Assembly: GCA_032718475.1 (NCBI GenBank)
Contig: JAUCBJ010000012.1
Location: 1-64,000, forward strand
Length of the DNA stretch: 64,000 bases
DNA from: Nemertoderma westbladi
Lineage: Eukaryota > Animalia > Xenacoelomorpha
Reading direction: 5' to 3'
The notes under the pieces were generated by a model, which did no database searches, had not been told where the DNA came from, and worked only from the letters and a program-made list of their open reading frames with translations. Positions 9,109 to 57,523 of the stretch are shown in pieces. The translations under genes and the position numbers were made by a program. The first letter of the stretch is position 1. The number at the start of each line of letters is the position of its first letter.

Positions 9109-9172
9109 GTTAGAATATTTAAATAGTACAATATATCAGTCGTGTTGTGTCAGTTGTAGATTCCAATCAATT

Positions 9173-13328: not shown

Positions 13329-13524
13329 CTACTCACACTTACCACTACCGTATTACTCGGCCAAAATTACGAACCATCAAGTGGGCCACATCCCTACCCA
13401 TGGCATCTAGTCTCGAGGGATGGTTTATTTAATTATTTATTTTTATCTTGACAGCAATTTAATTTAATTTGTAACTTAAAAATGAAATATTCGACTCACT
13501 AAACCATGTTTTTTTTATTTGTAG

Positions 13525-25442: not shown

Positions 25443-25587
25443 GTTGGAGACAAATACAGTACCGGTACATCCAGTGACACAGTCGGTGAATAGGTATATA
25501 AGCTGATTAGGGTATCACAATATTAGTATCTCTACAAATACATATATATTGGTTGGATTTGTTTACAATTATATATCTATAGTAACG

Positions 25588-27280: not shown

Positions 27281-30200
27281 TTACACAACCGCGGACAGAC
27301 ACATAATCCAGGATGAGTCAGTGTCAGACCCACTCCCGCTGACATGTACGTATCCGATATCCGAGTTGGCTCTATTATAGGAGGTATAACCCTGTAAACA
27401 ATAACGGTATAACCCTGTACGCAATAACGATATAACCCTGTAAACAATAACGGCATAACCCTGTAAACAATAACGATATAACCCTGAAAACAATAACGAT
27501 ATAACCCTGAAAACAATAACGCATAACCCTGTAAACAATAACGGCATAACCCTGTAAACAATAACGATATAACCCTGAAAACAATAACGATATAACCCTG
27601 AAAACAATAACGATATAACCCTGAAAACAATAACGCATAACCCTGTAAACAATAACGATATAACCCTGTACACAATAACGATATAACCCTGAAAAGAATA
27701 ACGCATAACCCTGTAAACAATAACGGTATATATATAACCCTGTACACAATAACGCATAACCCTGTAAACAATATCGATATAACCCTGAAAACAATAACGC
27801 ATAACCATGTAAACAATACCGATATAACCCTGAAAACAATAACGATATAACCCTGAAAACAATAACGCATAACCCTGTAAACAATAACGATATAACCCTG
27901 TACACAATAACGATATAACCCTGAAAAGAATAACGCATAACCCTGTAAACAATAACGGTATATATAACCCTGTACACAATAACGCATAACCCTGTTATCA
28001 ATAACGATATAACCCTGAAAACAATAACGCATAACCCTGTAAACAATAACGGTATATATAACCCTGTACACAATAACGCATAACCCTGTAAACAATATCG
28101 ATATAACCCTGAAAACAATAACGCATAACCATGTAAACAATACCGATATAACCCTGTAACAATAACGATATAACCCTGAAAACAATAACGATAACCCTTT
28201 AAACAATAACGATATAACCCTGTAGACATTAACGATATAACCCTTTAAACAATAACGATATAACCCTGTAAACAATAACACATAACCCTGTAAACAATAA
28301 CGCATAACCCTGTAAACAAAAACGCATCACCATATAAACAATAACGCATAACTCTGTAAACAATAACTCGTAACCATGTAAAGAATAACGGTATACCCTG
28401 TAAACAATAACGCATAACCCTGTAAACAATAACGATATAACCCTGTAAACAATAACGCATAACCCTGTAAACAATAACGCATAACCATATAAACAATAAC
28501 GGATAACTCTGTAAACAGTAACGCATAACCATGTAAAGAATAACGGTATACCATGTAAACAATTACGATATCACACTGTAAACAATAACGATATAACACT
28601 GTAAACAATAACGATTTATCCCTGTAAACAATAACGCATAATCCTGTACAAACAACAACAGTATAACCCTGTAAAAAATAACGCATAACCCTGTAAAAAA
28701 TAACGATATCACACTGTAAACAATAACGATATAACACTGTAAACAAAAACGATTTATCCCTGTAAACAATAACGCATAATCCTGTACAAACAACAACAGT
28801 ATAACCCTGTAAAAAATATCGCATAACCCTGTAAACAATAACGATATAACCCTTTAGACAATAACGATATAACCCTGTAAACAATAACGATATAACACTG
28901 ACTGTAAACAATAACGATTTAACCATGTAAACAATACCGGTATAACCCTGTGTAAACTATAACGGTATAACAGATATTTAGATTTAATAGATATAAAACG
29001 AATTTGCTCAAATCTACCTGGAAACACCCTCAGATTGATATGTAGGGTTATTGTAGTTCACACTAGGTATTTCTAGAACCGACACATTTGTCGGATGTTG
29101 AGTCCCTAACTTCTCTCGACATGTTGGACACGGTGGCATTGAGGCTCCTGTATGTATCGTTTGCGACGGCCTTGGGCATTCTCGGCACAAGTGACCCGTT
29201 CCAGGTTGAACAATAAATGAGCTCAACTCATTCTAAAATAAAGAATATCTTAAACGGCCTGTCAGATTGCTAGTTTTTGTTTATTTTTATCCGTTATATA
29301 TTTAGTGTAATAATCATTGACACTAATGATTAGTATAAAAAATTGTTCTCCCTTGGCCTGTTACACTTCTTTATCACCTGCGTCTCCTATCGGTTCATTG
29401 AATAATAAATACTAACACATTTGTGATAATTGTGTAATTGATTCGACGCAATCAAAATTCATCCCACTCCCTCGGTAAATCAACGAAAATAATCGTTTAA
29501 TGTTTTGGTTAGAATAACGTGGCCACTGTAACCTGTTCCTTACCCTGAATTTATAATTTAACATGAGACGTCATATTAATTAACTGAGGAGGTATTCCCC
29601 CCCCCCCCCCCCCCCCCCCCTTTATCACAGTATAATAGTTCTACAACAGAAGGTAGATAGTTGTAACCTTGTGAAGTGACGATAAACATCCACTATCATA
29701 TGTTCGTGATTGGGTATTCGTTGGGATTGTCCAAGTTGCTATTGTCGATGTCCCTACAATTACAAATTAAATGATATTTACACTAAACTGTATCGGCATA
29801 TTATACACAGGATCTTCGTAACTTTATTCCACTCACTCGCCACGTTCGTTCGTTTAATACGTTCGTTCGTTTAAAAACCACTCCGGTCAGTATACTCAGC
29901 AGGTAGGACAGTCACCGAGAGTTCAAACTGATTGTGTGACGACCCCCTGACTTGCAGGTAACAGCCAAGAGAGATGAGCATTCGGGATACTAAATTATTT
30001 CACGTTCCCCGATAACTTTACGGTATTTATGTAAATAGTTATTAATTACCTGAAGTTTTTGTGTTGTAAGTTATTAATTACCTGAAGTTTTTGTGTTGTA
30101 AGTTATTAATTACCTGAAGTTTTTGTGTTGTAAGTTATTAATTACCTGAAGTTTTTGTGTTGTAAGTTATTAATTACCTGAAGTTTTTGTGTTGTAAGCC

Positions 30201-31409: not shown

Positions 31410-32970
31410 ATCCCCCCCCCCACCAAATTATTCTCTTAATAAGATAGCATGAAATTTGAAACAGAGATAGCTTCAACTACGTCCTCCTTTGTGGGTGAGC
31501 CAGAATTTTTATTTTCGCTTTCAATCTATAGCTACAGTCTTATTGCAGTTATTCTTACACCTTATAGTAATTTGTTGGTAGCAATGGAAAGCTGGCCGTG
31601 CAAAGATTCCAAATATGTGAAAATATTTAAATTTGGTTTGGAAATAGCTGAGTTATGGGCATTCGAATGTTGCATGTAATTGCTTCCGCTGCAGGCCATT
31701 TATTCTATTTAATAAATACTCGATGTTCTACAACATTTTGTTTATGTATGAATATCCATGTACTGTAGTAATATTATTATTATAGGCATTATACTGTTGC
31801 CAAGCTACTTATGAGAAAAACAAAATGTTCCAGAATATTGTGTATTTATTAAATAGAATAAAAGGCCCGCATCGGAAGCATTACATGCATGATTCGAATG
31901 CCCATAACTCAGCTATTTCCCAACCAAATTCACAACTATTTTACATCATTGTGTGCAAAGTAGCACTTTGCAGCGTTATGACCCGAGTTTATTTATGTAC
32001 CGAGCGAGCGCAGCGAGGGAGGTTTACATAAATAAACAAGGGTCTTTAATGCTGAAAAGTGACCTTTGCACACAATGGTGTATGTAATTTTGTTACATTA
32101 TGTCAACTTATCAGCGTTCGGTATGTGAAGAAGGATTTTATGGATACTCATTTATACATTTTAATCTTGTACTATATCGAATTTAAGTGAAATTTATTAA
32201 CAGGTACACAGTATTAATTATACATTTATATCTAATTAAAGCTTATTGTTGTTATCTTCTGCATGGATGTGATAAAACTTTGATTCATTCCATTTTTTCC
32301 TTGGTCGCCTGCATCAAATATAATCGCCTGTGTCGCCGTCCAGTTTTACTGAACATTGTTGCCATGTTCTGTGCTCATTTTCTCTAAAGTGTCTTCTATT
32401 GGACGTTTCGATATAATGGAATAAATTAGACGTTAAACAATTATTTACATACAGTAGCTAGTCATAATCCCGTCACTGCTAACTGGATTGATAACAAAGC
32501 AGCACGCATTAATATAAATGGAAATAATACATTCTGGAGTACAGCAATTGAAGTTGTTTCCATGTCATTGATTACTTTGCAGCGTTCCGTCCTATAGGCC
32601 ACAACGCTGCAAAGTGGTACCTTGCAGTGTTACGAGTAATTCATCAGAACGCTGTTAAGTTGACATAATGTAACAAAATATTTTTACATCTTTGGAATCC
32701 TTGCACGGCCAGCTTTCCATTGGTACCAGCAAACAGCTACTGTATATAAGGTAGAAGAATAACTGCGGTGGTGTAACTGTTGTAATTTCGCTGGAGACAC
32801 TTTTTTTAAACGCTTGTAGGGTGTAGCTTAAGATTGAAAGCAAAAATAAAAATTCTGACTCACCCAAGAAGTGGTCGGGAGGTGACACTATCTCTGTTTC
32901 AAATTTCATGCAATCTCATCAAGATTTGAAGAACAAATTTTTTTTTTTTTTGGGGGGGGGGGGGGGGATG
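31410..32970. mobile_element. Foldback element with long IR arms and nested palindromes; related fragment at ~24330-24620
   Basis: 31445-31630 is the reverse complement of ~32675-32912 (two MKFETEI... pseudo-ORFs on opposite strands). Confidence 0.65.
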
Positions 32971-36953: not shown

Positions 36954-37978
36954 TACATTTTATACCTGTTCTATGTATTTGCTAAGGAAAATAATTTACA
37001 GATTAAATGGTTGTAATTGGAAGCAGGACATGGTAAAGAATCTCCATATGGTATTGGCGGAACCCTCAAGCGCACTTTAGATGCAGTGATGGGGATGGGT
37101 GTACACCAGACACCATCTTTTGATGACATTGTGAATTGTTTTAAGACTCGAACAGTGACAGAAATACTGTACTGAAGATGATGTTAAACAACAAAAGTTG
37201 AAGTTGACACCCGAACCTAGGCCTATTAAAGGCATTGTAAAGGCACATGAGGTTTTGCTTGATCCCATCGTAATGGATTTATCGTGCCTCTGGCAAGATA
37301 AGCTCCTAAAACGGCTTTGTATCTCTAAAGTTTCCAAAAAGTGCTTTCACTTTTTTACTGTTTTGGTTTCTCGGTATCAAGACAGAACTAGCTCGCAATA
37401 ATACACGGTCCTTCAATGACTTGTTGTTTACGGAGATCCACAGCCATTTTCTAGATAGTGCAAAACACCGTGATTTCTGTTCTTTCCAGGTGTTATATTG
37501 CTTCCTTCTGGTATAAAAATAGTGTACTCTACGTAACACCATAGAAAAACCTCTTCGAAGAGGAGAAACCGGGTGAAGAGTGCTTTGGGTCCGTTAGGAT
37601 CCAAAGTATAGCTTCGAAAAATAATACAATTCAAATAATTGTAACCAAAATACACAGAAAATACAGTATTTTAGTCGTTTCGTTATGCTAAAATACTCTG
37701 AAAAATATACAAAAAAGTCCATTGAAAAAAGTCTGATTGTAGAAAAGTCTATTTTGTGGAAAATAGTCATGAAAAGTCGTAATAAACTTGGTGCAGCTTC
37801 ACGCTATTGGAACTTGGCATTAGTACAAACACCAGGTACCCGTCTGGGTCCAAACGGCGGTGGGACCGATTGGATTGAAATGGTTGGCTACTGAATTGAT
37901 ATTTTTGATATAAATTGATTGAATTGATATTTATTTCCTTACTTCTTTATCCTACGACTTAGGATTGACCTCTAAGTC

Positions 37979-39181
37979 TGTTCGCGCTTTCAGACCGTTA
38001 TTGTTCGCGCTTTCAGACCTTTAGCAGTTTAACCTGCCAAATTTGGATGTCTTTTAGATGATAGATAGTCTTTAGCCTATGACAAGTATTTGATACACTA
38101 CATTAGCCGAATCCAGTCTATGCGCGATCATTCACCCGCTGGATATACCCGGGAGACTGGATTCGGAAGCCTAACCGTATTGCGGGGTAGGCCTACTGTA
38201 TTATTCGACTGATCGTAATATATATAATCTCTGACAAATATTCTTCACTTTCGGGAAATATTAACAGTTCCTTTAGGACGTGGCGCTTTAAATATATAAA
38301 CAGAGTTATGACTTAAACTAGACACAACGGGATGGCTATAGATTCACGTATATGGCGCATTCTTTAGGAGATGCTTCGTTATCAATCACGATCATACACA
38401 ATACTGCACAATGCTGCACCCTAATCTGCCGACCTTCACTAATTTTAGTCACATATAAGGAGAACAACAGACAATACGTGTAGGGCCTATAAAATAGCAT
38501 TAGATTCACTTCAAACCACTTAATGTAAGTCGCAATCGTTATATGTATCCGGTCTCTCTAACCTTTAGTATATCAAGAAGATTGGGGTGTCTGATTGTTT
38601 ATCAGTATTCCAAATATAATATTCCATCAACAAATATAATGAATAAACGACAGCAAAAGCAGTAATGTTAAGGTATGTTATGAGTGAGTGAGTAAGTTAA
38701 GTTATGTTATGTATGTATGATCAGTGAGTTTGATATGATAACGGATATACGTTCTATAATTAAGCCTACTAATGTTGAACTAAAGACTGAAACACGGAGG
38801 TTCCACGCCGGTGTTGTAGGCTGTGGACAAAATCACAATACTGACTCACTTCCCTAGTTTCTATATACAATCTCCAACACAGAGGCAAAAAACGCTCTGA
38901 TTGGTCGACCGAACAAAGAGAGAACAAAGAACAAAGAGATGTTCCACGTGGCAATATCAGCTGTTAGCCGTCGTCATGGTATCTACACTGTTTCAAGAGG
39001 ATCCGGCGTATTGCGTCATAGAATTGCTAATCATGTCCGCTAAAGTACACATACAGAAGAAATGGCTTTTATGTCCTCTAAAACAACAGTACAGTAAGGA
39101 CACGGCCTTTTATGCCTGCTAAACCAACTACAGAGTACTTTACGGGGAAAATAACCGGCTAATTACGCAAAAGCCTTTACA
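37979..39181 (-). repeat. 3' LTR of copy B (1180 bp plus a 23-bp terminal duplication)
   Basis: 38002-39181 matches 52882-54061. Confidence 0.95.
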
Positions 39182-39259
39182 CCGCTCCCAGAAAATGGGA
39201 TTTAAGTCTATAAAATATAACAAATCACAGTTTCTAAAATATAAAAATACTCTAAACAG

Positions 39260-42200
39260 TTAGTCTTTCTTACGCGGACGGCGTTTACGCAGTTTTTTGA
39301 GGCTAGCAAGAGTCCTTTTCTCTTTGGGGCGAGCCACTTTACTAGGAGGGCTGTAGCTCCTGGGTGAAGGGTGCAATACAATTGCATCAGAAGGTTTAGG
39401 ATTACGATCGGTGTATCCTCCGGTCGAGGTACCTGGTTGATCGGTATCAACTTCAGTGGAGCGAGGTCTAATGGCTTTTAGGGCGCGTCTTAGGACAGCA
39501 GCTCCTACGGGTCCTTGACGGGTCGTCTGGACAATGGCGGTAGGCGGACCGTGAGTGGTAAAAAACTTCCTTGGTTTAATGGTTCTTTCCAGCTCGCGTT
39601 CTCGGGCTCGATATTTGTAGGGCCGTCGAGATACTTCCTGTAACTCAGGGTGCGAGTTGATAAATAAATCGCCATACTCAGGGTCTTGACGGATGAAATT
39701 GATCAAATGATATGAAGTAATATCGTTAGGATTGACGTTCCTAAGATATTTTCGAACAAATTTGGTGGAAATACACTCACCAACACGCTTCATTAGTTCG
39801 TAACTCGGTGTGCGTGTTTTTTGTTCCACAGACGCGAATAAATAAGGATGGAACGCGTAAACTCCCTCGTAAGAGCGTCCAGGGTAGTAGCGATGGCGGG
39901 CCTCACAATGTAAATCCGCGTTCGCTTCCCAAGCTCGGATGTAGCGCAGGGTAATCATCTCATCTACGCTTTCTAAATCGCGGTTAAAGGGGCAATTATA
40001 ACTGGCATGTCCTTTAAGTTGACAGTGGTGACATTGGGTCATAAATTGGGGGCAGACTGCAAAAATATGCGAGTTATTAAGTCTGCAATACGCACAATAG
40101 ATCTCCATCATCGGTTGTTCGTGGAAATAGGAGCAGGGTACGTCTGAGTCCATAGGGGTGAAATGGTCTCTCGATGCGCATAATCGACAACGTTTTCGAG
40201 AAATATAGTTGGCGTGTCGATAATCGTATGCGGTGAGACATTGTGGACCTTGATACCACTCCAAGACGTAATCGTTATCGCTGCTCCGGGGCGCTGTAGG
40301 CTGGATCGCTTCAGATTCTAAGCATATTGGTTCGTCTTCCAATTGCATAGCTGAGGTAGGTGCGGCTGTCTCCGCAAGCGGACCCACGGTCTGAATTTGA
40401 ATATTCTATTGTCTGAATTTCCACGACAGAATAACCTGTGGGTATTCGAGGTCTTTGTATAACAGATGAATGTAAGTTCTGTATACAAACGTCCTGAAAG
40501 AGAGCAAATCCCGCGCTGTTTAGCTTCTCTGCAGCTGAGTCTCTTAGGCTGAGTTTGGTCAGAGCGCGGTCCTTGAACTGACTATCAACGTTACGGAACG
40601 GAGTCAGAAAGCGCCTGAAACATTCGAAGCGGATTAATTTATTGTGTTCATCTAACTTGGCGAGTTTGGTTCCAAGTATTAAGGGATGGGCGCGTATGGT
40701 ACGACTGCACACATCGGCTAGCCAACCAGCAAGTGCTGCGTTTTCAAAGATCGTGTATATAGCTAAGGAGGGACAAAGTGGAACACTCATAAAGCTATAC
40801 ACGGCGCCAGGTGCGGTCAATGGTCCATCAAAGTATAAACGAGAATATTGATCTCCATATACTTGTTGGTAATTTATAGGATTTCCAACCTTGAAATTCC
40901 ATCCATATTCTTGAAAGGCAAGATGTCCGATGGAGGTTCGTTGTACTTTGGTAATGCCGCTGGGTGTATTGGCATACATAGTGCGGAAGAAACCTCGGCC
41001 TTCTGCCCAGGGAGTAATCAGCTGAGTATCCACGAAAGGGTATGGAATGTTTTCCATATTCCGAAAGTCGTTTTGTAGATCTCCATAAACAGCCGAGCCG
41101 ATTTTAAGGATTCTTTCGTTAAACAACATCTCGAGCACAGGTTGGGGTAACATCGATCCATCGATACCCATGGCCGGTTTGCGCTCGGTGTCGGCGACGT
41201 AACGCTGCGCGAGCTCGAATTGTCCATGTCGGAGTCTCTTTTGTGTCTCAGTAAGAGTTTCAAAAGAATAATCAATCACATCGGAACACGCTCGAGTAAA
41301 TACGTGGGTAGAACCAGCGAGTCCTCGTATGTGTATCATCCGCGTAGTTCCCAGTTCTCCAACCGGAATGCTACCTTCGTTATCGTAAGTGACAACTCCA
41401 TACATCTCGATAACGTTAAGAGTTTCGTTCCACTCTTTAGTGGCGTTTTCGAGGGTCATTCCCACAGGATGCCACAAGGTAGCGCATTCGCTAGCATTAG
41501 GTAGGTCTCTATACTTTAAATATTGTGTGGTATATGTTTCCACATCTCCATATCGTTGTATTCTTTCCTCCTCGAATAACACGTCAAGATTCCAGTGTAC
41601 TAAACGAGTTTTGATGAATCCATCAAGATTATACGGAGGTATTGTTTCTTTCTCTATTCTGGAAACATTATATGGTTTTCGAAATGAGTTTACTTTAACT
41701 AACTGATCCAGATGTTTCTGCAGTTGTTCGAGTTCGACAAGATCGAGAGGATTTATTAGTGGTAGAAACCTCAGACTATGTGTAGGATCTTCCGGTTTTA
41801 CCATGTAATATTGCGTTAGATTGACGTAATAAGGGTGATCTTTGCCTGTCTTTCTTTTTTGATAACTCTTCAATTATCCTTCTAAGTGCCAAAATGGGCT
41901 CCATGGTCCCACGACCTTTACGGAACCCATTTCAGGGTTCCCCCAGGGTTCCGTAAAGGTCGTGGGACCATGGAGCCCATTTTGGCACTTAGAAGGATAA
42001 TTGAAGAGTTATCAAAAAAGAAAGACAGGCATCTGGCTGTTATCTTTGTTGACTTCTTCAAGGCCTTTGATTCAGTCTCTCGCTCACGTATGTTCAGCAT
42101 ACTTTCATTATATGGGATTCCTGATGAAATTATTGCAGCAATCAGATCAGTATACGATGGTTCGACAACATTTGTGTCTACTGTTGACGGTGACACAGAA

Positions 42201-44870
42201 CCATTTGAAGTGTTATGGGGCGTCCTCCAAGGAGACACACTTGCACCATTCTTGTTCATTATTGTGGTTGACTATGTTCTACGCATGTCCTTAGATCATC
42301 ATAATGATGATGGGGTGATGATAACTCCACCTACTGGCTCCAGAAGTCGAGGAAATCCTGCCAAGTACCTAACTGATCTAGACTTTGCTGATGACTAAGG
42401 AGTACTCTCAGAATCATTAGAGGGAGCCCAGCGGCTCCTCAGCTCATTAGAACATGCTGCTTCTAGTGTTGGTCTTTTTATTAACTCCAGAAAGACCAAA
42501 ATTCTGACAGTTAACTTTGAAAGTCCTCAACAAGTCTCTGATCGGATGAGCATAAGCTCAAAGGATGGTATGCTTGAGCATGTGGACGACTTCTGTTACC
42601 TGGGATCATGGATCCGGAAGTCAGGTGAGGACCTTCGAATACGTAAGGGAAAGGCATGGGCAGCCTTGAATAGGCTTTCCAGGATTTGGAAGTCACCTAG
42701 AATTAATCGGAAACTTAAGGTCCGATTATTTAGAGCAGCAGTAGTTCCAGTACTCCTCTACGGGAGTCCATGCTGGGCTCTAACTGCTGAGGACACCAAA
42801 TCTCTGGATGGCACATTCACAAGAATGCTACGCCGGGTACATTGTGTCAAGTACAATGCACACATCTCCAACCAGACACTATATAACATTGGAGGTGTCT
42901 CATTGGTTCCCCCAAGCTTGACACTAGAACAAAATCGTCTCCGCTTTGCAGGACATTGCTTTCGCCGTGAGGACCAGCCAGTGCATAATCTTGTACTTTG
43001 GCAGCCTCATGGAGTGAATAAGCATGGTGGACAGCCCATGACTTTCTTGAGACGCATCTTAAAGGACACTGGCCTTAAAGATGCGGATGATCTAGCAAAT
43101 GTCATGGGTGATAGGGAGTTGTGGCGGCGCAATTTTGTTGACAAGCCGGCACAGCATTCTTAAAAATGCAGCTGCAATGCAGCATGCCGATCCTAGTCCT
43201 AGTTGATCCCATAAAACGAGTCCGGTAAAGGTCTAGCGCGTATGTTTACATCGTGTACCATGCGACGGACAAGATCCGCTCTATTGTCCGGAGGTTGAAC
43301 GAGTGTACCATCTACACGAGCGGCTTCGATGGGTGGACGTTGCAACATGGGAGCGTCGGCGATAAGCTCTCTAGATCTTAGGTTGATATCAACCGGTTGG
43401 GGTTGTATCGTCGCAAAGAGTTTGTCTCCGAAATGGGGAACCATCGAGGGATGAAGGATGGTTTTAGAGTAGAGATCCGTCATAAGGATTTGAGCATCGG
43501 GTTGAGCTAAAGCTGCTTCTTCTCTCTCATCTAGTTCTATATGTCTCTCCTCGAGCTGATTTTCCTCCGCTTGTTGTTGTAGACGCTCATCTAGGAACTC
43601 TTGTAAAGAGTAGGTTCGTCCACGTTCGATGTCCTCTTAGAGATTTTGTATTTCTCTATCGAACTGGGGTAAAGCTAATTCCTTCACCGCTTGGACTTGT
43701 TGTTGCAATTTACGTTTCTCCAAACAATCGTAAGTTCCTTTTCCGATTTTCTGCCGAATAGCATCTAACGCGTTTCGTACGACGCTCTCTTCGACTTCTG
43801 TAACGGGTTGTATCGAGGTGAAGCCGGGACGGTTGTGTGGGTTAAATGGCGATTAGGTAGGGTTGGCGAATATCTAGTGAGCCTACTACCGGAGTACCAC
43901 CGATCAACTGTTCGGGTAACACTAGATCTTTGAACAGTGAGTACAGTTCAGGAGGATCCGTGATACTATTAGGATCAAGAGTCTGAGGTCTAACTGAGGA
44001 ATGAGGAGGTCTGACCGAGTATTCCGGAACTCTGATCATTGGTTTGTTCAAGGATCGTTTGAGTCGAGCGACCATAGGGGATACGTCGAACAGGTTTCGC
44101 TCGAAACTCCCATAAGTATATCGTGTAAAACTGTGTTTAGCGCAACGTCTCCGCGGATGTTTATGTCTTTCCGTTTGCTGATTGGGTCTAGGGCATTCGT
44201 CGCAGTAATACCAAAGACGCACGTCCTGCAGGGGAAACGCGGGTGATCGTTCTCCAGTTTTACAATATTCCTCCATCTGTTCGAAGCTATCTGGGACGAC
44301 AGGTAGCGGTCGATCGGCGGTAAGATACATCATAGTGAAATAGAGTCGTTTGAGTTCTATCATAGGATCATGATGTATACCTTGTGGATATCGAGTTTCG
44401 AGATTTTGTTGACTGGCAATAATGAGATATGTCTCTCTCAGGAATTCCAGATAATCGTTGAAGTCGCTGCGTTTATCCGGCTCTTCAACGTCTTCCCTTT
44501 CGAGTTTGTTTCGAATAGAGTTCTCGTGTTCTATTCTCGGTTTATCGTTCCGACTCCGCTGGGTATGATATTTAAATAAAACCATTTCCCTTTCGGTGTC
44601 TACATCGTCCGTATCGTGTAAATCGATAGGATGGCCAGTAGTTAAGAAGTCCATATACGTACCATTACGATGCGTATAGCGAGCGGTGAACTTTCTATAA
44701 TCCAATTCACGCGTAAGTTGCTCCTGGGACATTGGCGGTTCGATATAACGACCATCATCCTCCGTAGTAGTTGGACCAGCGTCTCCGCGTATCAAGCTAT
44801 CGACAAACGCTTGTAAAGGTAGAGTATATCGCTCCCTAATACCGAGATCATCTTCTATCAACTCAGTCAT
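39260..44870 (-). pseudogene. Extra ORF3 of the BEL element (~1400 codons reconstructed): N-terminal region and coiled coil, DEDDy/WRN-like 3'-5' exonuclease, three CCHC-type knuckles, basic tail; disrupted
   Basis: Same-strand segments 44870-43853, 43852-43205, 41840-40411 and 40388-39260 join after correcting a 1-nt shift near 43853, one TAA (~43638), the LINE insertion (with a 1-nt shift) and a 22-bp duplication. Motifs VVTYDNEG, LEMLFNERILKIGSAVYGD, FVDTQ, SIGHLA, PLCPSLAIYTIFE; CAYC..H..C and CHHCQLKGHASYNC. Confidence 0.75.
41841..43203 (+). mobile_element. 5'-truncated RTE-like LINE (C-terminal RT half, in-frame stop after FADD) inserted in ORF3
   Basis: GFRKGRGT, FVDFFKAFDSV, GVLQGDTLAPFLF, LDFADD, FCYLGS; (TCCTAG)2 tail; TSD TGATC (41836-41840 / 43204-43208). 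Confidence 0.9.
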
Positions 44871-46504
44871 ATCTGCTATGAGTTTATCAATATTATAATG
44901 AGTTTATATATTAGGCTAGCGGGCGTCGCTGCCTACCCCTCTTTTGCCCCCGGACAGTGCAAGATCCTCAGCGCCGATGTACCGTCGTCGCTGTGCTTTC
45001 GCCAACGATGTAGCTACACAACGACAACGATAACCGGCACAAGTCACTCCACTGTCCGTCCCAAAGGCTTAGATGTACTTTAGGTTCTTTCTGGAGAGTT
45101 AGGGTTACTTTCACAATTGCGACTAGCTACTGTAAACACACTTTAGCAGTAACATTCACCTATGAACGCACAAATTCAACACAACTGCCATAAACTGTAC
45201 ACATTCGGGCCATTTGTCCGTTAGTCAGTACCTTCCAGAATGTCACTTTATTTATTATGTATCCTTGGATACTAGCAGTGCGCTATTTATTCCCTATGCT
45301 ATTCAATGGGGCAAGCCTTCTATTGTTCTTTTAACTCACTTCTAATTCTAGCGTGGTTGTTGCCATGGTGACATTATGGAAAGCTAGCGGTAGAATTAGG
45401 GTAATTCTCATGCATACAGATCTGGGATGCTATTTAATAGTAATTCTTTAATTGTCAATATCCTCTCTATATATGATTTTATGAATTTTATCGGCTATTG
45501 ACTATATATTGGAGATTCTCGCACACAAATACACTTAATAGAGTGAATCTCCGCTCCCATGATCTATTAATTAATGGAATTTTGGGAATGTTATAAATTG
45601 TATAAAATGACAATTTATTAAATTCATTGAAATATCTGAATTTAAATTTATTCCCGTAAATTTTATTATTTAATGTTAAATAGACACAATTTTATTCCAG
45701 AACGTGTCTGGGGACTGGGACCCTTGATTCGATTCTAGGAATTTTGTCTTTTTAAGAGTATCGGTAAGTGCTACGATATCTTAATCGACTAGAATTTTAA
45801 AGGATCTGATATTTGACAGATTTTGTAAATATTAATAATTAATATTTAGGATGGGCACCAGTTTATTCCAGAACTTGTCTGGGGACGTTAACCACTGATT
45901 CTAGAATTTTGTCTTTCAAGTATATCGGTGGGTGCCACGATATCTTAATCGACTAGAATTACAGCTGGTCAAAGGGTTTAACAGATTTATTTGCGTTGTA
46001 CGCTACTGTTAAAGGGACATCACGCTACTATATGTATTATCTAATATACGGTATGAGAGCAATATCGCACGAAGCAATGTCAGTGTGAAGAGGCAAGTCG
46101 TTTCCAAGGTCTACCCGGAGCTTGGTTTAGCCGAGACACGAGGATCTGAACTTTGCATTCCTAATACTCTGCCTACCAATAATACTTGAATATAGTAGTG
46201 GCTTTATTGTACTTTAATAAGTACGGACATTTCATCTTACTGTAGTTACGTATTCGTAATGTAATACGGGCAGCAAGGAAAGAGAAAAAGAATTGTTTCT
46301 CGCCGTCGCACTAAATATATAATATAAGTAATTACGTAATAAACGAGAATATATTGCACTAATCTACTAAATAATCGCTAAAATAACATTCTACTAAATA
46401 AAATTAAAGAAAACGATTATAATAAAATTACATAATAATACATACATAAATATAAAATAATAAGAATATAAAATAATATGGTCACACACCCACTCCATAT
46501 GCTA

Positions 46505-46958
46505 CTAAGCTGGGGAGTCCCTAGATGTTTGTTGGATTAGGGAGGTGGTCGTGGGAAGAGTATCTTGCCTCCCATAGTTTCCGGAGAGTTCTCTGTCTCT
46601 TTCCAGTAAACATAAGCGACCAACTGGGCGATTGAGCTGCTGCGTCTCGAAGACAATTCCCGGTTTCTTGAAGTTACGTCGCATGACGACGAGTTCTACC
46701 GATCGCACCAAACCGTCATCCGAGATGTGAGTCTCGATGATACGACCTGTCTGCCACCGCTTACGTGGAAGATCTACATCCAGAATAAGAACCATGTCTC
46801 CAGCGCTGACGTTTTCTTGCTGCGCAAACCACTTAGTTCGAAGTTGTAGCGTGGGCAGATAATGTTTTTCGAAATGGTCAGCGAAACGACGGGATAACAA
46901 CTGCATGAGTTGCCAAGTTTGCCGGCAGTATTCGTCTCCGTCTGTGATTTCCGATTGT
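46505..46958 (-). pseudogene. C-terminal integrase remnant (BEL DUF5641-type region)
   Basis: HYLPTLQLRTKW...GDMVLI...PRKRWQTGRI...DGLVRSV...RPVGRLCLL, fused out of frame directly behind Gag. Confidence 0.85.
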
Positions 46959-49900
46959 GGTAGTTAGGGTGAGGTTGCTGTCTGTGTCTTTTTCATACGT
47001 AAGTGCTCGATACACTGCGGTATTTATCATGTAACAGGATTCACCTTCGTCGGAGAATTCATCTCTATAGAATCCTTCCATCTCAGAGCTTTGGTCAGTG
47101 TCGTTCACATCACTGAATTGGACATGTAGTTCGGAATCACTTACCTGACTCTGGCTGTTTCGCTCAAATTCAGTGTGCAACAAGATATGATGTTTCGCAC
47201 CGCACTTTGCACACCTTGTGTCGGAGTAACAGGTTCGCCGTTGGTGTCCTTGTCTGAGGCAATTATAACACAACCGCTTATCCCACATGACTTCCCGTCT
47301 CTCCGCTAATGATTTCTTCAGGAATTCATCACACGTATTCAAATGGTGGGTCCCGTCACATAGCGCACATTTCGGTTTGATGTTACTTACCTTATTTTGA
47401 ATAACAGTGTGCACACTCTTTCTTTCTTCGGGCTTTCTCACCTGAATTCTCTTGGGAGACGTAGGAGGAGTTTTTCTTACCTGTTCTCTCCTGTCATTGG
47501 TTCGAGACTTGAATTTACTTACCTGTTCTTTAGGCGTTTTATTGACATAATAAGATCTTTCAGTGTCTTTCCCGCTATCCTCTCCTTGAGAAGTCTGGCT
47601 TTCGCCGTCGTCTGTATAACACACTGGTGTTACCTTTCTCCTAGAGATGGGTTTCTCACTTACCTTGTTTTCCGGTGTCTTCTCTCTGGACTGCTTTATG
47701 AGCTGTAATTTCACTTCGCCATCCAAGAATGACATGAGATCAGCCATGGTAGGGTCTCGTTGTTGTTGTTCCATCATATATAACACTTTCTTGTCCCAGC
47801 GTGTACCTACTCCACCCTTCGGTAAAGTAGAAGCCACTGCTCTAATAACCATAGCACTCTGATACTCATGAGACTTACCTAGCCAATCTAATTGTCTGCA
47901 GATCTCCTGAATCTCATCGGAAAACTCTATAATCCCGCTGCTAATAAACTTTCGGGGCGCTACCAACTTTGCATACAAATACCCAGCTATGTTATTCCTA
48001 TTACCATACCTGATGTTTAGTGTATCCCAAACTTGTCTTAATCCGTCTGGATGTCCAATAAACTTTAACGCCATTAACTTGGGAGATCCTTCCAAGCACT
48101 CGATGAGGAATCTAAGTTTCTCTCCATTAGATAGCACAGAGTTCTGTATGTTATCTTTATAATATTCATTAAAAGGTAACCATTTCATCTCATCTCCATT
48201 GAACTTCACTATCTCTCCCACCTTTACCGCTTGGCGGGCTTCGGTTCTAGCCATTTGACGCGTAAAACTTTCTTGGGCCATCGTGTTATTTAATATCGAG
48301 TTATCGGTATATAAATTTCTTGGGTTATGATCAGGTCTATAGGGAATATCACTATCAACAGGTCTATAATTACCCTTAATAGGGTTTACTATAGGAGTTT
48401 CTACTTCACTAGCAGTATAGATGCGTGTAGGCTCCACACCTTGCGCATGAAATACTTCAGACCTAACGGGTTGACATATTGTTACAGAGGGTGGTGATAT
48501 ACCCTTTTGTAAATTTACTAATTTCTCGCGTTCTAGCGCGATACTTTGCTGCACTTCTTGCAACTCTAACCTACTTTCCTTTACGGTTCCCTTTAACTGT
48601 TGAACAGTCCCTTCTAACTCTCGGACCTGTAGGGAGGAGCGCACTCGATTCTCCTTCATCTCTCCGAGGAGAATGTCCATCCCCCGCTGTCTCTCGTCTA
48701 CCCAATCAACCGCCGAAGCAGGATCCGCCAACGTCGTAGCGGGCGGACGAGGGACTACAGGCGATATATCCTTTATATTTCGCTCGGAGTCCAGGACCGA
48801 CACTGCTTCAGGGGCTGTTCCTCTAGGCACAGATAATTTGGTGCTGTGTAAAGGGAATTTAAAGGTGGGTTCTGGGAGCACAGGTGTCTCTATCACCGAA
48901 GGGGTGATTTCAAGAACAGGCCTAATTATTTCAGGCTCATCTACTATAGTAGGGAGTCTTTCTAGTTTAATTATTTGGTCTGTGGGTTCTGTACTACCTA
49001 AATCTGTGTTAGTTAATTGCCTTCTAACAGCTGGGGGCAAATCAGGCAATTTGTGACGGTAAGATGTTCTTCTACGCCTACTTAGACGAGATCTATTTCC
49101 TCTGCCTTCAGGATCGGTGGTATCGCCTTCCTCAGATGATGTATAACCTTGTCTCTTGGGAGTAGATCTATTCATCATCTGCATATTACTAGCTGTTAAC
49201 TGTTTACTGAAGTTGTCTTGCTTCTCTTGAAGATTTTCCAACTCTAGTTGGGTTGTCTCTTCAGATGCCCTCCGTTCTGCTTCTGCCACTGCTATTTTTC
49301 TTTCCGCTTCGGCCGCTGCCGCTTTTCTTGCTGCTTCTACTGCTGCAGCTGCCGCTTTTGCTTCTGCCGCTGCCGCTTTTGCCTCTGCTGCTGCCTCTGC
49401 CGCTTTTCTATCCGCTTCTGCCGCTGCCACTGCCGCTGCTGCTGTCTTTCTATCTTCTATACGTTTTTTCTTTACTTGTTCTTCTTGAACCTTAGCGATG
49501 CGGATGCTTTCATTGAATTTAGCTTGGTTCGCAGCTAACCTATCCACATCGATTGCGTCCAACACACGCTGGGCTCCTTCACTATTAGGGCTAAGCCCCT
49601 CTAGTCTTCTCCTCAACTCTTCATCTCCTACAAAACGTTGATAGTCCGACAGATAGATGTCAATGGCATCCCTCTTATGCGGCTTCTCTGCCGTCGCTTC
49701 ACTTTCCACTTGGGAAAAAGTAGCGTCTGTTGATTCTCCATGGGTTGAGCGCTCATCCAGTTGGGCTTTCCACTGAGTCGTTCCTTGCACCTGGAGGCTC
49801 ACCTGTTGAAACCAAGTCTTTACGGCAACTTGCAACGACGTGTCTTGTCTTCTTTTAGAAGCCTCCTCAAAGGCCGATAAGATTAGCCTGATTCGTAGAA

Positions 49901-50621
49901 TTCTTTCTCTAACTTGATAAAGCAGCTGTCCCTGCTCTTGAGGTCCTTGGGGTTGTTGAAACAGTTGTTTTTCTAATCACTCCATGGAGCTGAAGAATCC
50001 CTGTACGTATCCGGCTGCGGACCTCTTCCACACAGCTGGATCGATGGTTTCCTTGGTTACTCCCATCCTGTGTATATCTTCCCAGGCAGCTTCTGATAAA
50101 TCAAACGGGAGTCCGGGTCCGGGGAAGTTCCATTGCGACTCGACAATAGACTTCAGTTCTTCCCTTGTGTATCCCTCATAACTATCTTTAGTCGATCGCT
50201 TACTTCTCGCCCAATCGATCTGGTGTTCTTCCACCGCAATCAATAACCTAGTGAGTATGGCTGCAGGAAGGATGAGAAGGGGATCCGAATAAACCGCATC
50301 CGTCATCTTTGCTCCGCGCTCGGGTGTCAGCTCTACAGTATCCTCACTACTGGAGCTGTCGGGCCGTTGAGAAATAAGTTCTTGGCTCGCGGGTTGTTGT
50401 TGTTCCGCTGCTTCTTGGTCCCGCTTGACCTGAGCTCTAGTGCCTATGACAGACCTACGGTGTTGGACCAGCCTAGGTTCTGATATTACTACTGGGGAAA
50501 TGATCTTTCTTACAGTAGGAGGTGAGTTGAACTTCGGTCTAACACGTTCCACACTCCTGTCTGGGTCACATAAGGTTGTATCTAGGAGACTGTCTGACAG
50601 GTTTTGCTTTGTGTCAGACAT
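46959..50621 (-). pseudogene. BEL Gag of copy B, in-frame CGA>TGA stop at 49979-49977
   Basis: ORFs 49977-50621 and 46878-49835 share a frame; DUF1759-like region and triple knuckle CALC..H..C / CYNC..H..C / CAKC..HH...H. Confidence 0.9.
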
Positions 50622-52870
50622 GTTGGTTTGTACAGTTGAATGCCTACTGCTATATTACAGTTAAAGCAAGTTTAGTAATTCAGTATCAACTGTTAGCCTA
50701 GTAATTAATTACCGATACTGCTACTCAGTGTAGCGTGATATATATATAATATATTAGAATACCGGTATGCTTATAGTATATATATAAGTATTATTACAGA
50801 CTAGGTTTGTCACAGGATACCGGTATGTAATTCCAGCACAAATATATATAAATATATAATAGGCCTATCGTGAATACCGGTATGCAGCTTACACTTATAG
50901 TACATATAAGTATAATTATTAACTAGAATTAATTACAGAATACCGGTATGATTTCAGCCTAAATTTATATAACTAAATATAATAAGCCTATCGTGAATAC
51001 CGGTATGTCAATTATTTTAGAATAATTGAATTTCTGAATTTTTAGGGGTTACTTGGTTACTTTAACTTACTTTATTACCGTTATTTAAGCAGTAGTCCAA
51101 CTGATATTTAGACCTAATTGTTGTATGGCAGGCCTACTATTTATAAATCGTTTGATTTGATTTATAATATATATATACCCGTTTAATGGGTTTTGTCAAT
51201 ATTTGAAATAAATGTTATTATTTCTGGGGGGAGTCACTACACAGAAGCTGTGCGCTCTCAGTGGAATGCTACTTGTTGGACACTAAAACAAATAATTCTA
51301 ATTTACCTAAGTTACTTAATACTACAAATTACATACAATTCGGGGTGAGATTACAATCTCTAAATAAACACAAAAAATTACACGTACGAATTTTTAGGGT
51401 AATTTTACAAGAAGTCTACAAACCAGCCTAACAAAGGGTTAGAAATCTGGTTATTACAACGGACAGAGTACTACGGTATTTGAAAATAATAAGTAGTAGT
51501 AAATATACTGCGTTGTCCAGATAGAAAAATACCACCGTCTGACGACTTATAGCCGTATCGCTATAAGTACTACGTTATGTATCACGGAGTGTTCCTACCT
51601 AGAAGTTAATTACCGCGGTCTACCAGAACCAACGTGCCTATTAACCACTTTACAACACAAATATACTGCCTACACACTAATTGCCTTCGGAAAGCACTGT
51701 ACACTAAACCCTAAATTAGGTACAAGTACTTATACAACAAATAATTAGTAGTTAAAATACTTGAACAGCTAAAAGAACCACGGTATCTGCCGGAGTGACC
51801 AAAGCACAAAATCTCCAGTCTTTACCTACGCCGAGCAGCCCTGATGTAGTACCGGGGTTAGTTTAACTATAACAGTATGTATAACAAGCACAATTACTGT
51901 AGGAATAAACTTGGGGAATGAATGTTGCAAATAATCGCATAAACTCTGAATAATAAATATTACGCTACGCGTACAGACTACTCAAACAAAATGCAGACCA
52001 AATACTGACAGACTACTATCAAGCCTAAACAAACTACGGTATATGCAGACTCCGAAATGGTTAGTTAGTATGCGTTCTAACCTAGTAGTACGACTTATTC
52101 TTTCAGAGGGGGTTTACCTCACAGCACTGGAAGCCCCTACATTCCCAACTGGCACTTTATCGGACATACACTCTACACACACCGAAATTTCCTCAGACCT
52201 AACAACAGCCAGACAACTATCCAGCCTACAAATTATCTAAATAAGAATTATACGCTACCTGTATAGACTACACAAACAGAGTACAGACCAAACGCTGGCA
52301 GACTACTATCAAGCCTAAATAAACTACAGTATATGCAGACTCCGAAATGATTAGTTAGTATGCGTTCTAACCTAGTAGTACGACTTATTCTTTCAAAGGG
52401 GGTTTACCTCACAGCACTTGAAGCCCCTACGTTCCTAACTAGCACTTTATCGGACAGATGCTCTACACACACTGCAATCTGTTCAGACTTAACAACAGTT
52501 TGACAACAGTCTAGCCTACAAATTGTCTGTACAATCTGAGCAGGCTTACACGCCTTCTGCTCAATATTGGCCTACAAATAAATAAAACTTGACAGAAATA
52601 AGTAAAATCTCAATAAAAAACCAGGGCAGGGCGGCCGTCCCTGATTAATTATTAAGGCCTACCGGTATATAATTATCAAAATCGAATAATACTGCTGTAC
52701 CTGTACTGCTGTAGGTACCGGTCCGGGTGGTTAGGTAGTCAGGCCTACTGGGTACCGGTTGCCGGTACTTCAGCTTTATTGCCTACTGCAATACAGAAGC
52801 AATATCCGTTATTGTTCTTACCAGAACAATATTAAACTGTATTTATTGCCTACCCTGCAATCCGAACTTG

Positions 52871-52881
52871 ATATCCGTTAT
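52871..52881 (-). promoter_or_regulatory. Non-tRNA PBS of copy B (ATAACGGATAT), complementary to 53628-53618
   Basis: Abuts the 5' LTR end; exact 11-nt complement inside the LTR. Confidence 0.7.
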
Positions 52882-54061
52882 TGTTCGCGCTTTCAGACCT
52901 TTAGCAGTTTAACCTGCCAAATTTGGATGTCTTTTAGATGATAGATAGTCTTTAGCCTATGACAAGTATTTGATACACTACATTAGCCGAATCCAGTCTA
53001 TGCGCGATCATTCACCCGCTGGATATACCCGGGAGACTGGATTCGGAAGCCTAACCGTATTGCGGGGTAGGCCTACTGTATTATTCGACTGATCGTAATA
53101 TATATAATCTCTGACAAATATTATTCACTTTCGGGAAATATTAACAGTTCCTTTAGGACGTGGCGCTTTAAAAATATAAACAGAGTTATGACTTAAACTA
53201 GACACAACGGGATGGCTATAGATTCACGTATATGGCGCATTCTTTAGGAGATGCTTCGTTATCAATCACGATCATACACAATACTGCACAATGCTGCACA
53301 CTAATCTGCCGACCTTCACTAATTTTAGTCACATATAAGGAGAACAACAGACAATACGTGTAGGGCCTATAAAATAGCATTAGATTCACTTCAAACCACT
53401 TAATGTAAGTCGCAATCGTTATATGTATCCGGTCTCTCTAACCTTTACTATATCAAGAAGATTGGGGTGTCTGATTGTTTATCAGTATTCCAAATATAAT
53501 ATTCCATCAACAAATATAATGAATAACCGACAGCAAAAGCAGTAATGTTAAGGTATGTTATGAGTGAGTGAGTAAGTTAAGTTATGTTATGTATGTATGA
53601 TCAGTGAGTTTGATATGATAACGGATATACGTTCTATAATTAAGCCTACTAATGTTGAACTAAAGACTGAAACACGGAGGTTCCACGCCGGTGTTGTAGG
53701 CTGTGGACAAAATCACAATACTGACTCACTTCCCTAGTTTCTATATACAATCTCCAACACAGAGGCAAAAAACGCTCTGATTGGTCGACCGAACAAAGAG
53801 AGAACAAAGAACAAAGAGATGTTCCACGTGGCAATATCAGCTGTTAGCCGTCGTCATGGTATCTACACTGTTTCAAGAGGATCCGGCGTATTGAGTCATA
53901 GAATTGCTAATCATGTCCGCTAAAGTACACATACAGAAGAAATGGCTTTTATGTCCTCTAAAACAACAGTGCAGTAAGGACACGGCCTTTTATGCCTGCT
54001 AAACCAACTACAGAGTACTTTACGGGGAAAATAACCGGCTAATTACGCAAAAGCATTTACA
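52882..54061 (-). repeat. 5' LTR of copy B (1180 bp)
   Basis: TGTAAATG...GCGCGAACA; ~99.3% identical to the 3' LTR by eye. Confidence 0.95.
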
Positions 54062-54066
54062 AAGTC

Positions 54067-55934: not shown

Positions 55935-56343
55935 TTATTTCATTTTTAAATCAGGATCATGATGGAGTGTATTTTTGTATGTTTGCCTACGGAGGCGCAA
56001 AAAATCGATTACAGTAAAGTGTTCAACCACATCCTCTTCTTTCTTTGACTTATCATTACGGCTGAACCACCGTTGCATCTCAGTACGGACAATGACTTCC
56101 TCATCCAAGTCATACGTGTACTCTCGGGCCACCTCTAGCAATGATTCCATTAAGTTGACCTTTGCATAGGCAGGGAGTAGTTCATGAAGTGTAAGCTCAC
56201 TCGGTACAGTAGAAAAGCGGTATGACAGCTCAGTGTGCATACTGTCTATGAATGGAATAAATACTGACCGTCGTAATACTCCTCAGGAGTTGATCATCAA
56301 CATTAGACCGATAAATTTGTTGCTTCGTACGGCGTGGGATGGC
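55935..56343 (-). pseudogene. hAT (ZMYM1/P52rIPK-like) transposase fragment interrupted by BEL copy C
   Basis: PRRTKQQIYRSNV...TPEEYY...SVFIPFIDSMHTELSYRFS...EMQRW. Confidence 0.65.
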
Positions 56344-57512
56344 TGTAAAAGCTTTTGCGGAATTAGCTGGTTATTTTCCCCGCAAAGTACTCTGTAGTTG
56401 GTTTAACGGACATAAAAAGCCGTTTCCTTACTGTACCGGTGTTTTAGAGAACATAAAAAGCCATTTCTTCTGTATGTGTACTTTAGCGGACATAACTAGC
56501 AATTTTATGTCGCAATACGCTAAAATCCTCTTGACACAGTGTAGTTACTATGATGACGGCTAACAGCTGATCTGTACACGTGGAGCTTTTCCTTTGTTCT
56601 CTGTTCTTTCTTTGTTCGGTCGACCAATCAGAGCGTTTTTTGACTCTGTGTTGGAGATTGTATACAGAAACTCATGCAATTGAGTCAGTTGGTGTATTTT
56701 GTCCACAGCCAGAAGACCGGCTTTGGAATCTCTGTGTTTTCAGGCTTTAGCAAAACATTAGTAGGCTTGATCATAGAACGTATAACCGTTATCTAAACAA
56801 TTCATACCTAATCAAACAAAACAATCAAAACACCGCATTTTTACTGCTATTTACTGTCGGTTATTAATTATATCAGTTGATGGAATATTATTATATTGGG
56901 ATAATATCGATCAATAATCAGAAACCCCAATCTTCTTGATATACTGAAGGTTAGAGAGACTGGTTACATATAACAATTGCGACTTACATTATATTGGTTT
57001 TGGAGTGAATCTAATGCTATTTCATAGGCACTACATGAGTCAGTGGTTGTTCTCTTTATATGTGACTAAAATTAGTGAAGGTCGGCAGATCGGTGTGCAG
57101 CATTGTGCGGTAGTGTGCATGATTGTGACTGATAACGAAGCATCTCCTAAAGAATGCGCTTTATACATGAATCCATAGCCATCCCGTTGTGTCTAGTGTA
57201 AGTCATAACTCTGTTTACATATTTAGAGCGCCATGTCCTAAAGGAACTGTTAATATTTCCCAAAAGTGAATAATATTGGTCAGAGATTATATATTAACAA
57301 TCAGTCGAATAATACAGTAGGCCTACACCGCAATAAGGTCAAGGCTTCCGAATCCAGTCTCCCGGGTATATGCAGCGGGTGAATGGTCGCGCATAGACTG
57401 GCTTCGGCTAATGTAGTGTATCAAATACTCGTCATAGGCTAAAGTCGATTTATAATCTAGAAGACATCTAAATTTGGCAGGTTAAACTGCTAAAGGTCTG
57501 AAAGCGCGAACA
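56344..57512 (+). repeat. 5' LTR of copy C (~1169 bp)
   Basis: TGTAAAAG...GCGCGAACA, homologous to the B LTRs. Confidence 0.9.
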
Positions 57513-57523
57513 ATAACGGTTAT
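57513..57523 (+). promoter_or_regulatory. Non-tRNA PBS of copy C (ATAACGGTTAT), complementary to 56782-56792 (ATAACCGTTAT)
   Basis: Compensatory substitution relative to copies A and B at both sites. Confidence 0.7.

Follow-up and report, generated by a model that had tools for sequence, protein, structure and literature searches.

The 64-kb window, by which we mean the whole stretch of DNA analysed here, contains a 16-kb LTR retrotransposon of the BEL/Pao class (copy B), which lies on the minus strand within a 5-bp target duplication and carries an extra gene, ORF3, between the integrase and the 3' LTR. In the reading direction of the element, the features are:

52875–54061, minus strand: 5' LTR, about 1.19 kb, with the GACTT target duplication immediately outside (54062–54066)
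46964–50654, minus strand: gag region in two stop-bounded pieces, with DUF1759 (PF03564, E=8e-11) and three gag knuckles
46505–46963, minus strand: integrase C-terminal remnant, DUF5641 (PF18701, E=3e-21)
44904–46504, minus strand: AT-rich spacer of 1.6 kb with short repeats, from the integrase stop to the extra gene
43842–44903, minus strand: ORF3 piece 1, ATG at 44870, 342 codons, one Cys/His cluster, coding constraint
43203–43852, minus strand: ORF3 piece 2, frame change relative to piece 1, in-frame stop at 43637–43639, acidic and Gln-rich
about 41842–43202, plus strand (antisense to ORF3): nested 1,361-bp fragment of a LINE reverse transcriptase (RVT_1, E=1e-11)
40311–41841, minus strand: ORF3 piece 3, resuming the frame of piece 2 beyond the LINE, with the DEDDy-type exonuclease domain at about 40700–41420
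39260–40405, minus strand: ORF3 piece 4, with linker, three Cys/His knuckles, an unassigned region and a basic tail
39182–39259, minus strand: trailer of 78 bp, ending in a short purine-rich tract that adjoins the 3' LTR
37979–39181, minus strand: 3' LTR with a short terminal duplication; GACTT target duplication at 37974–37978

The two LTRs have TG...CA ends and share about 99.3% identity (8 mismatches in 1,187 bp). Together with the target duplication, the BEL-type gag and the integrase C-terminus, whose DUF1759 and DUF5641 domains we take to be BEL/Pao markers, they bear out the class that an earlier sequence-only reading had given to the element. No TGG-type primer-binding site was seen by eye directly after the 5' LTR, and searches for tRNA and Rfam families returned no matches within the 64-kb window. 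Nearly all of pol has been deleted at about 46960 in copy B, leaving only the integrase end; the similarity of a sister element, copy A, to copy B breaks off at 46960, and loose ends flank this point on both sides. Copy A encodes a protease followed, up to the window edge, by the beginning of an RT-like region whose motif we presume to be that of a reverse transcriptase; copies A and C are both cut off at the window edges before the extra-gene region. Copy B is dead. Its length, not counting the LINE and with pol largely missing, is 14.7 kb and exceeds the range of 4.2–10 kb given for belpaovirids (PMC8742986), which is descriptive and no taxonomic criterion. We infer that a complete element would measure 18 kb or more.

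The coding sequence of ORF3, all on the same strand, spans about 1,415 codons from the ATG at 44870 to the stop, the LINE excluded. The stop ends 78 bp short of the 3' LTR, which agrees with the earlier placement of the gene inside the element, some 80 bp from the LTR. The four same-strand segments of roughly 1,400 codons that had been described earlier fared less evenly: the strand and the length hold, but the gene falls into four frame blocks that comprise five stop-bounded pieces, and it contains a LINE. In copy B, ORF3 has suffered two frame changes, the second of them inside the 40311–40405 overlap of pieces 3 and 4, one stop and the insertion of the LINE fragment. At one end of this fragment, 86 bp are duplicated in inverted orientation; the fragment is missing from other copies, since joints that skip it occur in contig sets X1, X3, X4 and X5. 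That ORF3 was one frame of about 1,400 codons, including the first junction and with it the 342 codons of piece 1, is plausible; among five deleted derivatives examined, the frames of the pieces are preserved in two, the chance level, which is no proof of one long frame. No family was assigned to piece 1, for which the best ESM Atlas score, 0.80, amounts to no match. With an acidic N-terminus and a 19-residue hydropathy that peaks at 1.47 over all pieces, the protein shows no obvious signal peptide or membrane helix; Pfam detected no fusion-protein family in ORF3, and the earlier conclusion that the gene is not an env stands.

A search among 1.84 billion protein representatives uncovered a distant relative of the window protein, P0001 (29% identity, E=1.5e-6), encoded on a 9.4-kb contig, in which D-x-E, D, Y-x3-E, a linker, three knuckles and a basic tail follow one another in a single intact frame of 648 residues. 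In the window protein the same motifs all lie where the sequence-only reading had located them, with the ExoI D-x-E at 41384 (D codon) and 41378 (E codon), the ExoII D codon at 41081, and the ExoIII Y and E codons at 40757 and 40745. The ExoII Asp stands in its helix and strand context, and the motifs are 101 and 108 residues apart, compared with 57 and 66 in RNase D. ExoIII reads Y-x3-E instead of the canonical Y-x3-D in both proteins, which makes the domain a DEDDy-like variant and a non-canonical member of the family; since P0001 has the final Glu that had already been remarked on in the window protein, this odd Glu is a common trait and not decay. An Asp-to-Glu replacement at the ExoIII site of the Klenow fragment reportedly keeps activity, a report that we do not use as evidence. 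In EXD2, the corresponding last ligand is Asp246 (PMC6648332). That all five residues (D, E, D, Y, E) are retained although the two proteins are 29% identical suggests a functional two-metal site whose last ligand is Glu.

Several comparisons point to the family of the domain. In the ESM Atlas, the best clusters carry PF01612 with a score of 0.94 and 170–176 shared features, a level to be read against the 4–10 per 100 shuffled proteins that reach at least 0.9 and against rates that are not calibrated for parts of proteins. The 10 best family matches all belong to one clan, and the nearest language-model neighbours include PF01612 proteins of 360–380 residues from giant viruses. NCBIfam gave an RNase D match to the ExoII stretch (E=0.014); an RNase D profile scored 9.2 bits on the window domain and 7.3 bits on P0001, values that none of 500 shuffles reached, and the hhalign score was 39 against a maximum of 21 in 100 shuffles. 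MAFFT in local mode aligned the window protein and P0001 with RNase D at its ExoII D, DTQ and ExoIII Y..D. The statistical tie to a known family is confined to the ExoII stretch: for ExoI, the register is that of the best local alignment with P0001, yet 768 of 1,000 shuffles score at least as high, and MAFFT placed ExoI differently in 4 of 6 runs.

Pfam PF01612 did not match the window protein, nor did a PDB sequence search with the window domain find a match. A two-sequence profile recovered no PDB relative and gave no signal on E. coli RNase D or Pol I. AlphaFold models reached a pLDDT of 32 for the window domain alone, which makes a Foldseek search on it meaningless, and of 30 for P0001 with one partner row. 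The word-index protein search with the exonuclease piece found no relative among proteins of 276–879 or 880–2510 residues, locus scans of viral and metagenome contigs found none, tblastn against phages gave chance-level matches only, and a PHROGs search gave nothing useful. The DnaQ-like, PF01612-type identity put forward earlier is supported by the Atlas and by RNase D profiles on the ExoII stretch but not by Pfam, and the domain probably has a DnaQ fold, judging from these profiles.

The three knuckles (40189–39992) start at 40189, 40096 and 40033, in agreement with the earlier reading; only the third has the canonical C-x2-C-x4-H-x4-C spacing, the first being x2-x4-x9 and the second x2-x5-x4, and the Pfam zf-CCHC_3 match (E=0.006) falls short of its cut-off. 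By analogy, the knuckles may serve as an RNA grip and the basic tail as a nuclear signal. The knuckles of P0001 match retroviral nucleocapsid proteins (E=1e-4) and, more weakly, Air2 (E=0.06). Piece 1 does not resemble P0001 (its score is equalled or exceeded by 44 of 100 shuffles), nor does the post-knuckle region align with it (268 of 300). A word-index search with P0001 returns P0001 alone, making it a singleton, and NCBIfam found nothing on it. The fusion of exonuclease and knuckles has independent backing from P0001, whose source may lie outside retroelements.

The 1.6-kb exonuclease stretch is covered by 4,030 contigs of set X2 and 1,994 of set X3, mostly 90–99% alike, figures that do not represent copy number, and by 32 contigs of X5, a set that is labelled with a second organism and may be RNA; most of these are less than 95% alike. 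Of the 55 differences listed between copies, 38 are synonymous, where a fraction of about 0.34 would be expected (P=1e-7); this is a count, not a dN/dS estimate, drawn from the best-supported 40 of 1,692 and 40 of 414 rows; reading the wrong frames gave 6/55 and 9/55. The excess extends to piece 1 (7 of 9 listed differences) and piece 4 (12 of 19), while none of the listed differences falls in piece 2, and the five putative catalytic codons are free of differences in the 40 best-supported rows for the exonuclease stretch. ORF3 is a family-wide gene under purifying selection.

DEDDy-type third ORFs have been reported from the bdelloid rotifer LTR retrotransposons Juno and Vesta and from Athena/Terminon elements (PMC5408684). 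Like ORF3, the Juno and Vesta genes are described as RNase D-like, non-env third ORFs lacking a membrane helix and having one Asp replaced by Glu; unlike the present element, Juno and Vesta are not BEL/Pao, and their motif is DEED whereas here the last Asp is replaced (PMC5408684). The likeness is one of description. The gene here spans about 1,415 codons and has three knuckles, and the terms 'zinc knuckle', 'CCHC' and BEL/Pao do not occur in the consulted passages of the rotifer paper (PMC5408684). The rotifer ORFs were not among the matches in the word-index searches or in the search of the 1.84 billion representatives. As the sequence-only reading had stated, there is precedent in rotifer elements (PMC5408684), and our searches found no DEDDy gene in BEL/Pao and none fused to knuckles. 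Within Belpaoviridae, roo and mosquito BEL elements have env-like third genes in the same slot, from pol to the 3' LTR (PMC8742986, PMC13524379), but these encode fusion glycoproteins, whereas ORF3 has a nuclease-type domain. With RNase D, EXD2/WRN (PF01612) and the giant-virus PF01612 proteins, ORF3 has in common the order D-x-E, D, Y-x3-acid and an alignable ExoII helix and DTQ strand, and it differs from cellular DEDDy nucleases in its Glu as last ligand, long insertions and fused knuckles. Because no full-domain homology to cellular or giant-virus DEDDy proteins can be aligned, the donor cannot be named. CERV, from Cer1 of C. elegans, is also a nuclear accessory protein of an LTR element linked to element RNA; Cer1, however, is gypsy-type, and the CERV abstract, with which we compare by description, names no exonuclease domain (PMC10309623).

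We propose that the family has its own accessory gene, kept by purifying selection between the integrase and the 3' LTR, whose product would probably combine a 3'-5' exonuclease of DEDDy type with three zinc knuckles. By analogy, this product would be expressed from a subgenomic RNA, act in trans, bind RNA and trim its 3' ends, and so blunt host small-RNA silencing of the element. Arenavirus ExoN is a viral exonuclease that suppresses host immune signalling (the consulted part of PMC7968707), and for the rotifer ORFs 3'-end processing was suggested first, with a silencing role as one possibility (PMC5408684). We are highly confident of the anatomy of element and gene; the whole chain, up to the anti-silencing purpose, is our leading reading, put forward tentatively. 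As between anti-silencing and other uses of a nuclease, the present sequence evidence favours neither.

It is very improbable that the motif matches arose partly by chance and that the domain is not a DnaQ-fold nuclease. The lack of Pfam and PDB matches, the two models with pLDDT of about 30 and the lack of separate statistical support for ExoI and ExoIII would fit such a case, but the Atlas, NCBIfam, the shuffle-controlled profile test on two proteins and the conserved motif order agree on the family. Just as hard to credit is a host gene captured by the BEL/Pao element and carried along without selection, or an independent mobile element that inserted there; the decay of copy B, the LINE already inside it and derivatives that lack much of the gene would be in keeping with this. 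Against this stand the synonymous excess, the lack of terminal repeats or shared ends, a stop that abuts the purine tract and LTR, the absence of a close cellular relative among the 1.84 billion representatives, and 15 listed joints, of 830, none of which removes the region cleanly; the gene also proved not to be confined to copy B, as the sequence-only reading had allowed it might be, but to exist in many divergent copies.

Two other functions deserve more weight, though we consider both unlikely. With a weak or dead exonuclease fold, the protein could be an RNA-binding regulator that, for instance, exports unspliced genomic RNA from the nucleus or sequesters silencing factors. The replaced last Asp in both proteins, the long domain insertions, the knuckles and the basic tail would suit it, and it has models in CERV, a nuclear export factor made from spliced Cer1 mRNA (PMC10309623), and in EXD1 and Maelstrom, inactive DEDD derivatives that retain RNA binding (PMC5408684). 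A dead site, however, has no need of four carboxylates and a Tyr all kept at 29% identity, and one Asp is likewise Glu in the rotifer ORFs, whose motifs are otherwise intact (PMC5408684). Alternatively, and with rather low probability, the nucleocapsid-like knuckles would let the nuclease enter the particle with genomic RNA; once there, it would trim the 3' ends of RNA or cDNA, or excise wrongly incorporated bases, and help a very long element to copy itself. The nucleocapsid match of P0001, a length beyond the belpaovirid range (PMC8742986), the association of nidovirus ExoN proofreading with long genomes (PMC7968707) and the role first suggested for the rotifer ORFs (PMC5408684) speak for this. 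On the other side, the 1.6-kb spacer separates the gene from pol, gene and spacer account for much of the extra length, and CCHC knuckles are common among RNA binders, as the Air2 match illustrates. To our knowledge, most LTR elements lack such a gene and still replicate. Beyond the accessory nuclease that we prefer, a broader picture is doubtful: a giant BEL/Pao lineage whose active D-E-D-y-E exonuclease and nucleocapsid-like knuckles form an old module of distant animal retroelements and either destroy element-directed small RNAs or proofread reverse transcription.

BEL/Pao elements are described as gag-pol plus at most an env-like gene. A large, conserved nuclease-type gene in the env slot shows that, as in complex viruses, their accessory genes can encode enzymes. 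With this gene, whose domain set is different, the DEDDy ORF3s known from rotifers reach a further superfamily, which suggests that 3'-5' exonucleases have been recruited repeatedly by retroelements. The question of what retroelement DEDDy genes do dates from 2017, and the compact, intact P0001 opens the enzyme question, including the activity of Y-x3-E, to direct test. Destruction of small RNAs or proofreading of reverse transcription would, if true, be a first for LTR retrotransposons, and an animal element that encodes a suppressor of piRNA/siRNA silencing, or an RT proofreader, would be of wide interest.

Copy B, the BEL/Pao element under study, spans 14.7 kb with its nested LINE excluded, exceeding the size range of 4.2-10 kb in the ICTV belpaovirid profile (PMC8742986). 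It is bounded by the following repeats:

52875-54061 and 37995-39181, minus strand, LTR pair of copy B (1,187-bp repeats, 8 differing positions)

A 5-bp target duplication lies on either side of the LTR pair, and together with the 8 mismatches it indicates that the insertion is young. Between the LTRs, DUF1759 marks a gag region and DUF5641 the C-terminal end of an integrase; both families are typical of BEL/Pao, an element type that points to an animal host. The match of copy B to copy A, a sister copy at the window edge, ends at 46960, where the gag end passes directly to the integrase end, so that copy B is non-autonomous; both sides of 46960 are loose ends in contigs from other copies. Copy A retains the protease and the beginning of RT before it is cut off by the window edge within a short repetitive tract. 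Two further family members, 82-91% alike and with copy A among them, were found in the 64-kb window (1-8211 and 56335-64000). At 37979-38001, the final bases of the 3' LTR are repeated in a short terminal duplication that is absent from the 5' LTR. Just downstream of the 5' LTR, there is no obvious primer-binding site for a tRNA.

Other features of the window include an uninterrupted ORF at 25507-26091 (+) with an RRM (PF00076, E=6e-20) and an Arg/Ser-rich tail, which looks like an intronless gene or retrocopy of an SR splicing factor-like protein, presumably of the SRSF2 type. The long ORFs at 9100-13500 and 27200-29000 are artefacts of long tandem arrays built of roughly 33-34-bp and 22-23-bp units, and imperfect palindromes of 220-330 bp at 22838-23387 and 31615-31946 are possibly MITE-like elements.

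Downstream of the integrase, a 1.6-kb AT-rich spacer precedes the extra gene, ORF3. The sequence-only reading had placed a gene of ~1400 same-strand codons inside the element; indeed, coding sequence opens with an ATG at 44870 and closes with a stop that lies 78 bp short of the 3' LTR. It amounts to ~1,415 codons, plausibly a single frame in intact copies, when summed across the following breaks in copy B:

43842-43852, break 1, frame change in an overlap
43637-43639, break 2, stop
about 41842-43202, break 3, antisense LINE fragment of 1,361 bp
40311-40405, break 4, frame change in an overlap

Contigs joining across the LINE site were found in four runs of four studies, and the ORF3 pieces flanking the LINE share one frame. 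Within the 40311-40405 overlap, an indel relative to the window was present in one contig each of sequencing runs X4 and X5, and cover falls in all four runs compared; the frame change there fits a break peculiar to copy B. No likely membrane helix or signal peptide was found in any ORF3 piece, in agreement with the claim that the gene is not env. At 44870-44915 (-), two short motifs precede the ATG of ORF3: a TATA-like box ~40 bases away, a candidate internal promoter, and, only a few bases away, an AG dinucleotide that is a candidate splice acceptor. Piece 1 contains a further Cys/His cluster at 44100-44210 (-), in which several His and a Cys come after C-x2-C; this cluster may bind zinc.

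ORF3 is a real, family-wide gene of this BEL/Pao family. The alternatives that the region is unique to copy B or a separate nested insertion did not hold: its exonuclease stretch was found in thousands of contigs at 80-99% identity in organism A runs and in 32 contigs of one organism B run (X1 and X2 are one sample, possibly the one from which the window came; X3, X4 and X5 come from other studies), and no terminal repeats bound the region itself. Among the differences listed within ORF3 (best 40 of 1,692 and best 40 of 414 rows, not a full dN/dS), 38 of 55 distinct differences were synonymous, against about a third expected: 7/9 in piece 1, 19/27 in piece 3 and 12/19 in piece 4. Wrong frames gave 6/55 and 9/55, and the integrase remnant, a positive control, gave 6/7. 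The family also includes several derivatives with internal deletions within 39400-44850, some without about 4 kb of ORF3; they are present in more than one run, one under both organism labels.

The exonuclease domain in piece 3 very probably has a DnaQ fold, as judged from sequence comparison. Pfam and PDB sequence searches with it gave no match, but ESM Atlas returned PF01612 clusters at 0.94. These are mostly giant-virus proteins of 360-380 residues, the family being carried by 28-51% of members, and their taxa are no sign of transfer. Both NCBIfam matches, at E=0.014 and 0.076, were to RNase D over the ExoII stretch. Against a profile built from 80 RNase D domains of enterobacteria, the window domain and a distant intact relative, P0001, each outscored 500/500 shuffles, while pieces 1 and 4 and reversed sequences scored below 0; hhalign gave a probability of 74% over 44 columns in the RNase D comparison. 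The statistical tie to a known family is confined to the ExoII stretch, the ExoI register being set by motif and order. Judged by the strict motif, the predicted domain counts as DEDDy-like, a variant rather than a canonical DEDDy member.

P0001, a 648-residue protein, was the single relative found by phmmer among 1.84 billion representatives (E=1.5e-6, 29%). In a single frame, it carries D62-x-E64, D130 and Y229-x3-E233 and then, beyond an extended linker, three knuckles of CCHC type and a tail of basic residues, thereby repeating the exonuclease-knuckles-tail layout read in ORF3. It aligns with piece 4 across the knuckles (pairwise E=1e-5; 0/300 shuffles), and it matches PF01612 weakly over the same ExoII stretch (E=0.2). 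Because P0001 lacks the long N-terminal part of ORF3, the conserved unit is the exonuclease plus knuckles, and because Y-x3-E is present in P0001 as well, the Glu at ExoIII is a group trait; EXD2 has Asp246 at this position (PMC6648332, in excerpt). Overall, the observation behind the sequence-only reading stood, and its interpretation was partly borne out.

The conserved carboxylates would form an active two-metal site, the tandem knuckles may bind single-stranded RNA and the basic tail may direct the protein to the nucleus. By its position, ORF3 could be expressed from a subgenomic message, as with env, and action of its product in trans would fit the deleted derivatives without the gene. 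Some host small-RNA trimmers belong to the DEDDy group. By analogy with these and with arenavirus ExoN (as excerpted from PMC7968707), we rank first, tentatively, the possibility that the product trims or destroys silencing RNAs. A regulator of RNA that does not cut it, or an export factor in the manner of CERV (PMC10309623, in excerpt), seems rather unlikely, and a part in reverse transcription or in proofreading slightly less likely still; the data do not discriminate among silencing, regulation or export, and replication.

Among rotifer elements, the DEDDy ORF3s of Juno, Vesta and the Terminons are described as putative exonucleases with a DEED motif (in portions of PMC5408684, PMC6431247 and PMC6338049). 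Third genes in these BEL/Pao descriptions are env-like only (PMC8742986; PMC3118150; PMC13524379), and the word 'exonuclease' is absent from the main texts of PMC3118150 and PMC13524379. The literature covered, outside subscription journals, supplements, Repbase, GyDB and Dfam, where annotation is possible, yielded neither a BEL/Pao exonuclease gene nor an exonuclease-knuckle fusion in a retroelement. In a large BEL/Pao family, ORF3 is a genuine accessory gene of putative function, combining a likely DEDDy-type domain with three knuckles. Relative to known DEDDy ORF3s, it is new in its host group and size, in its combination of domains and in its variant of the active site.
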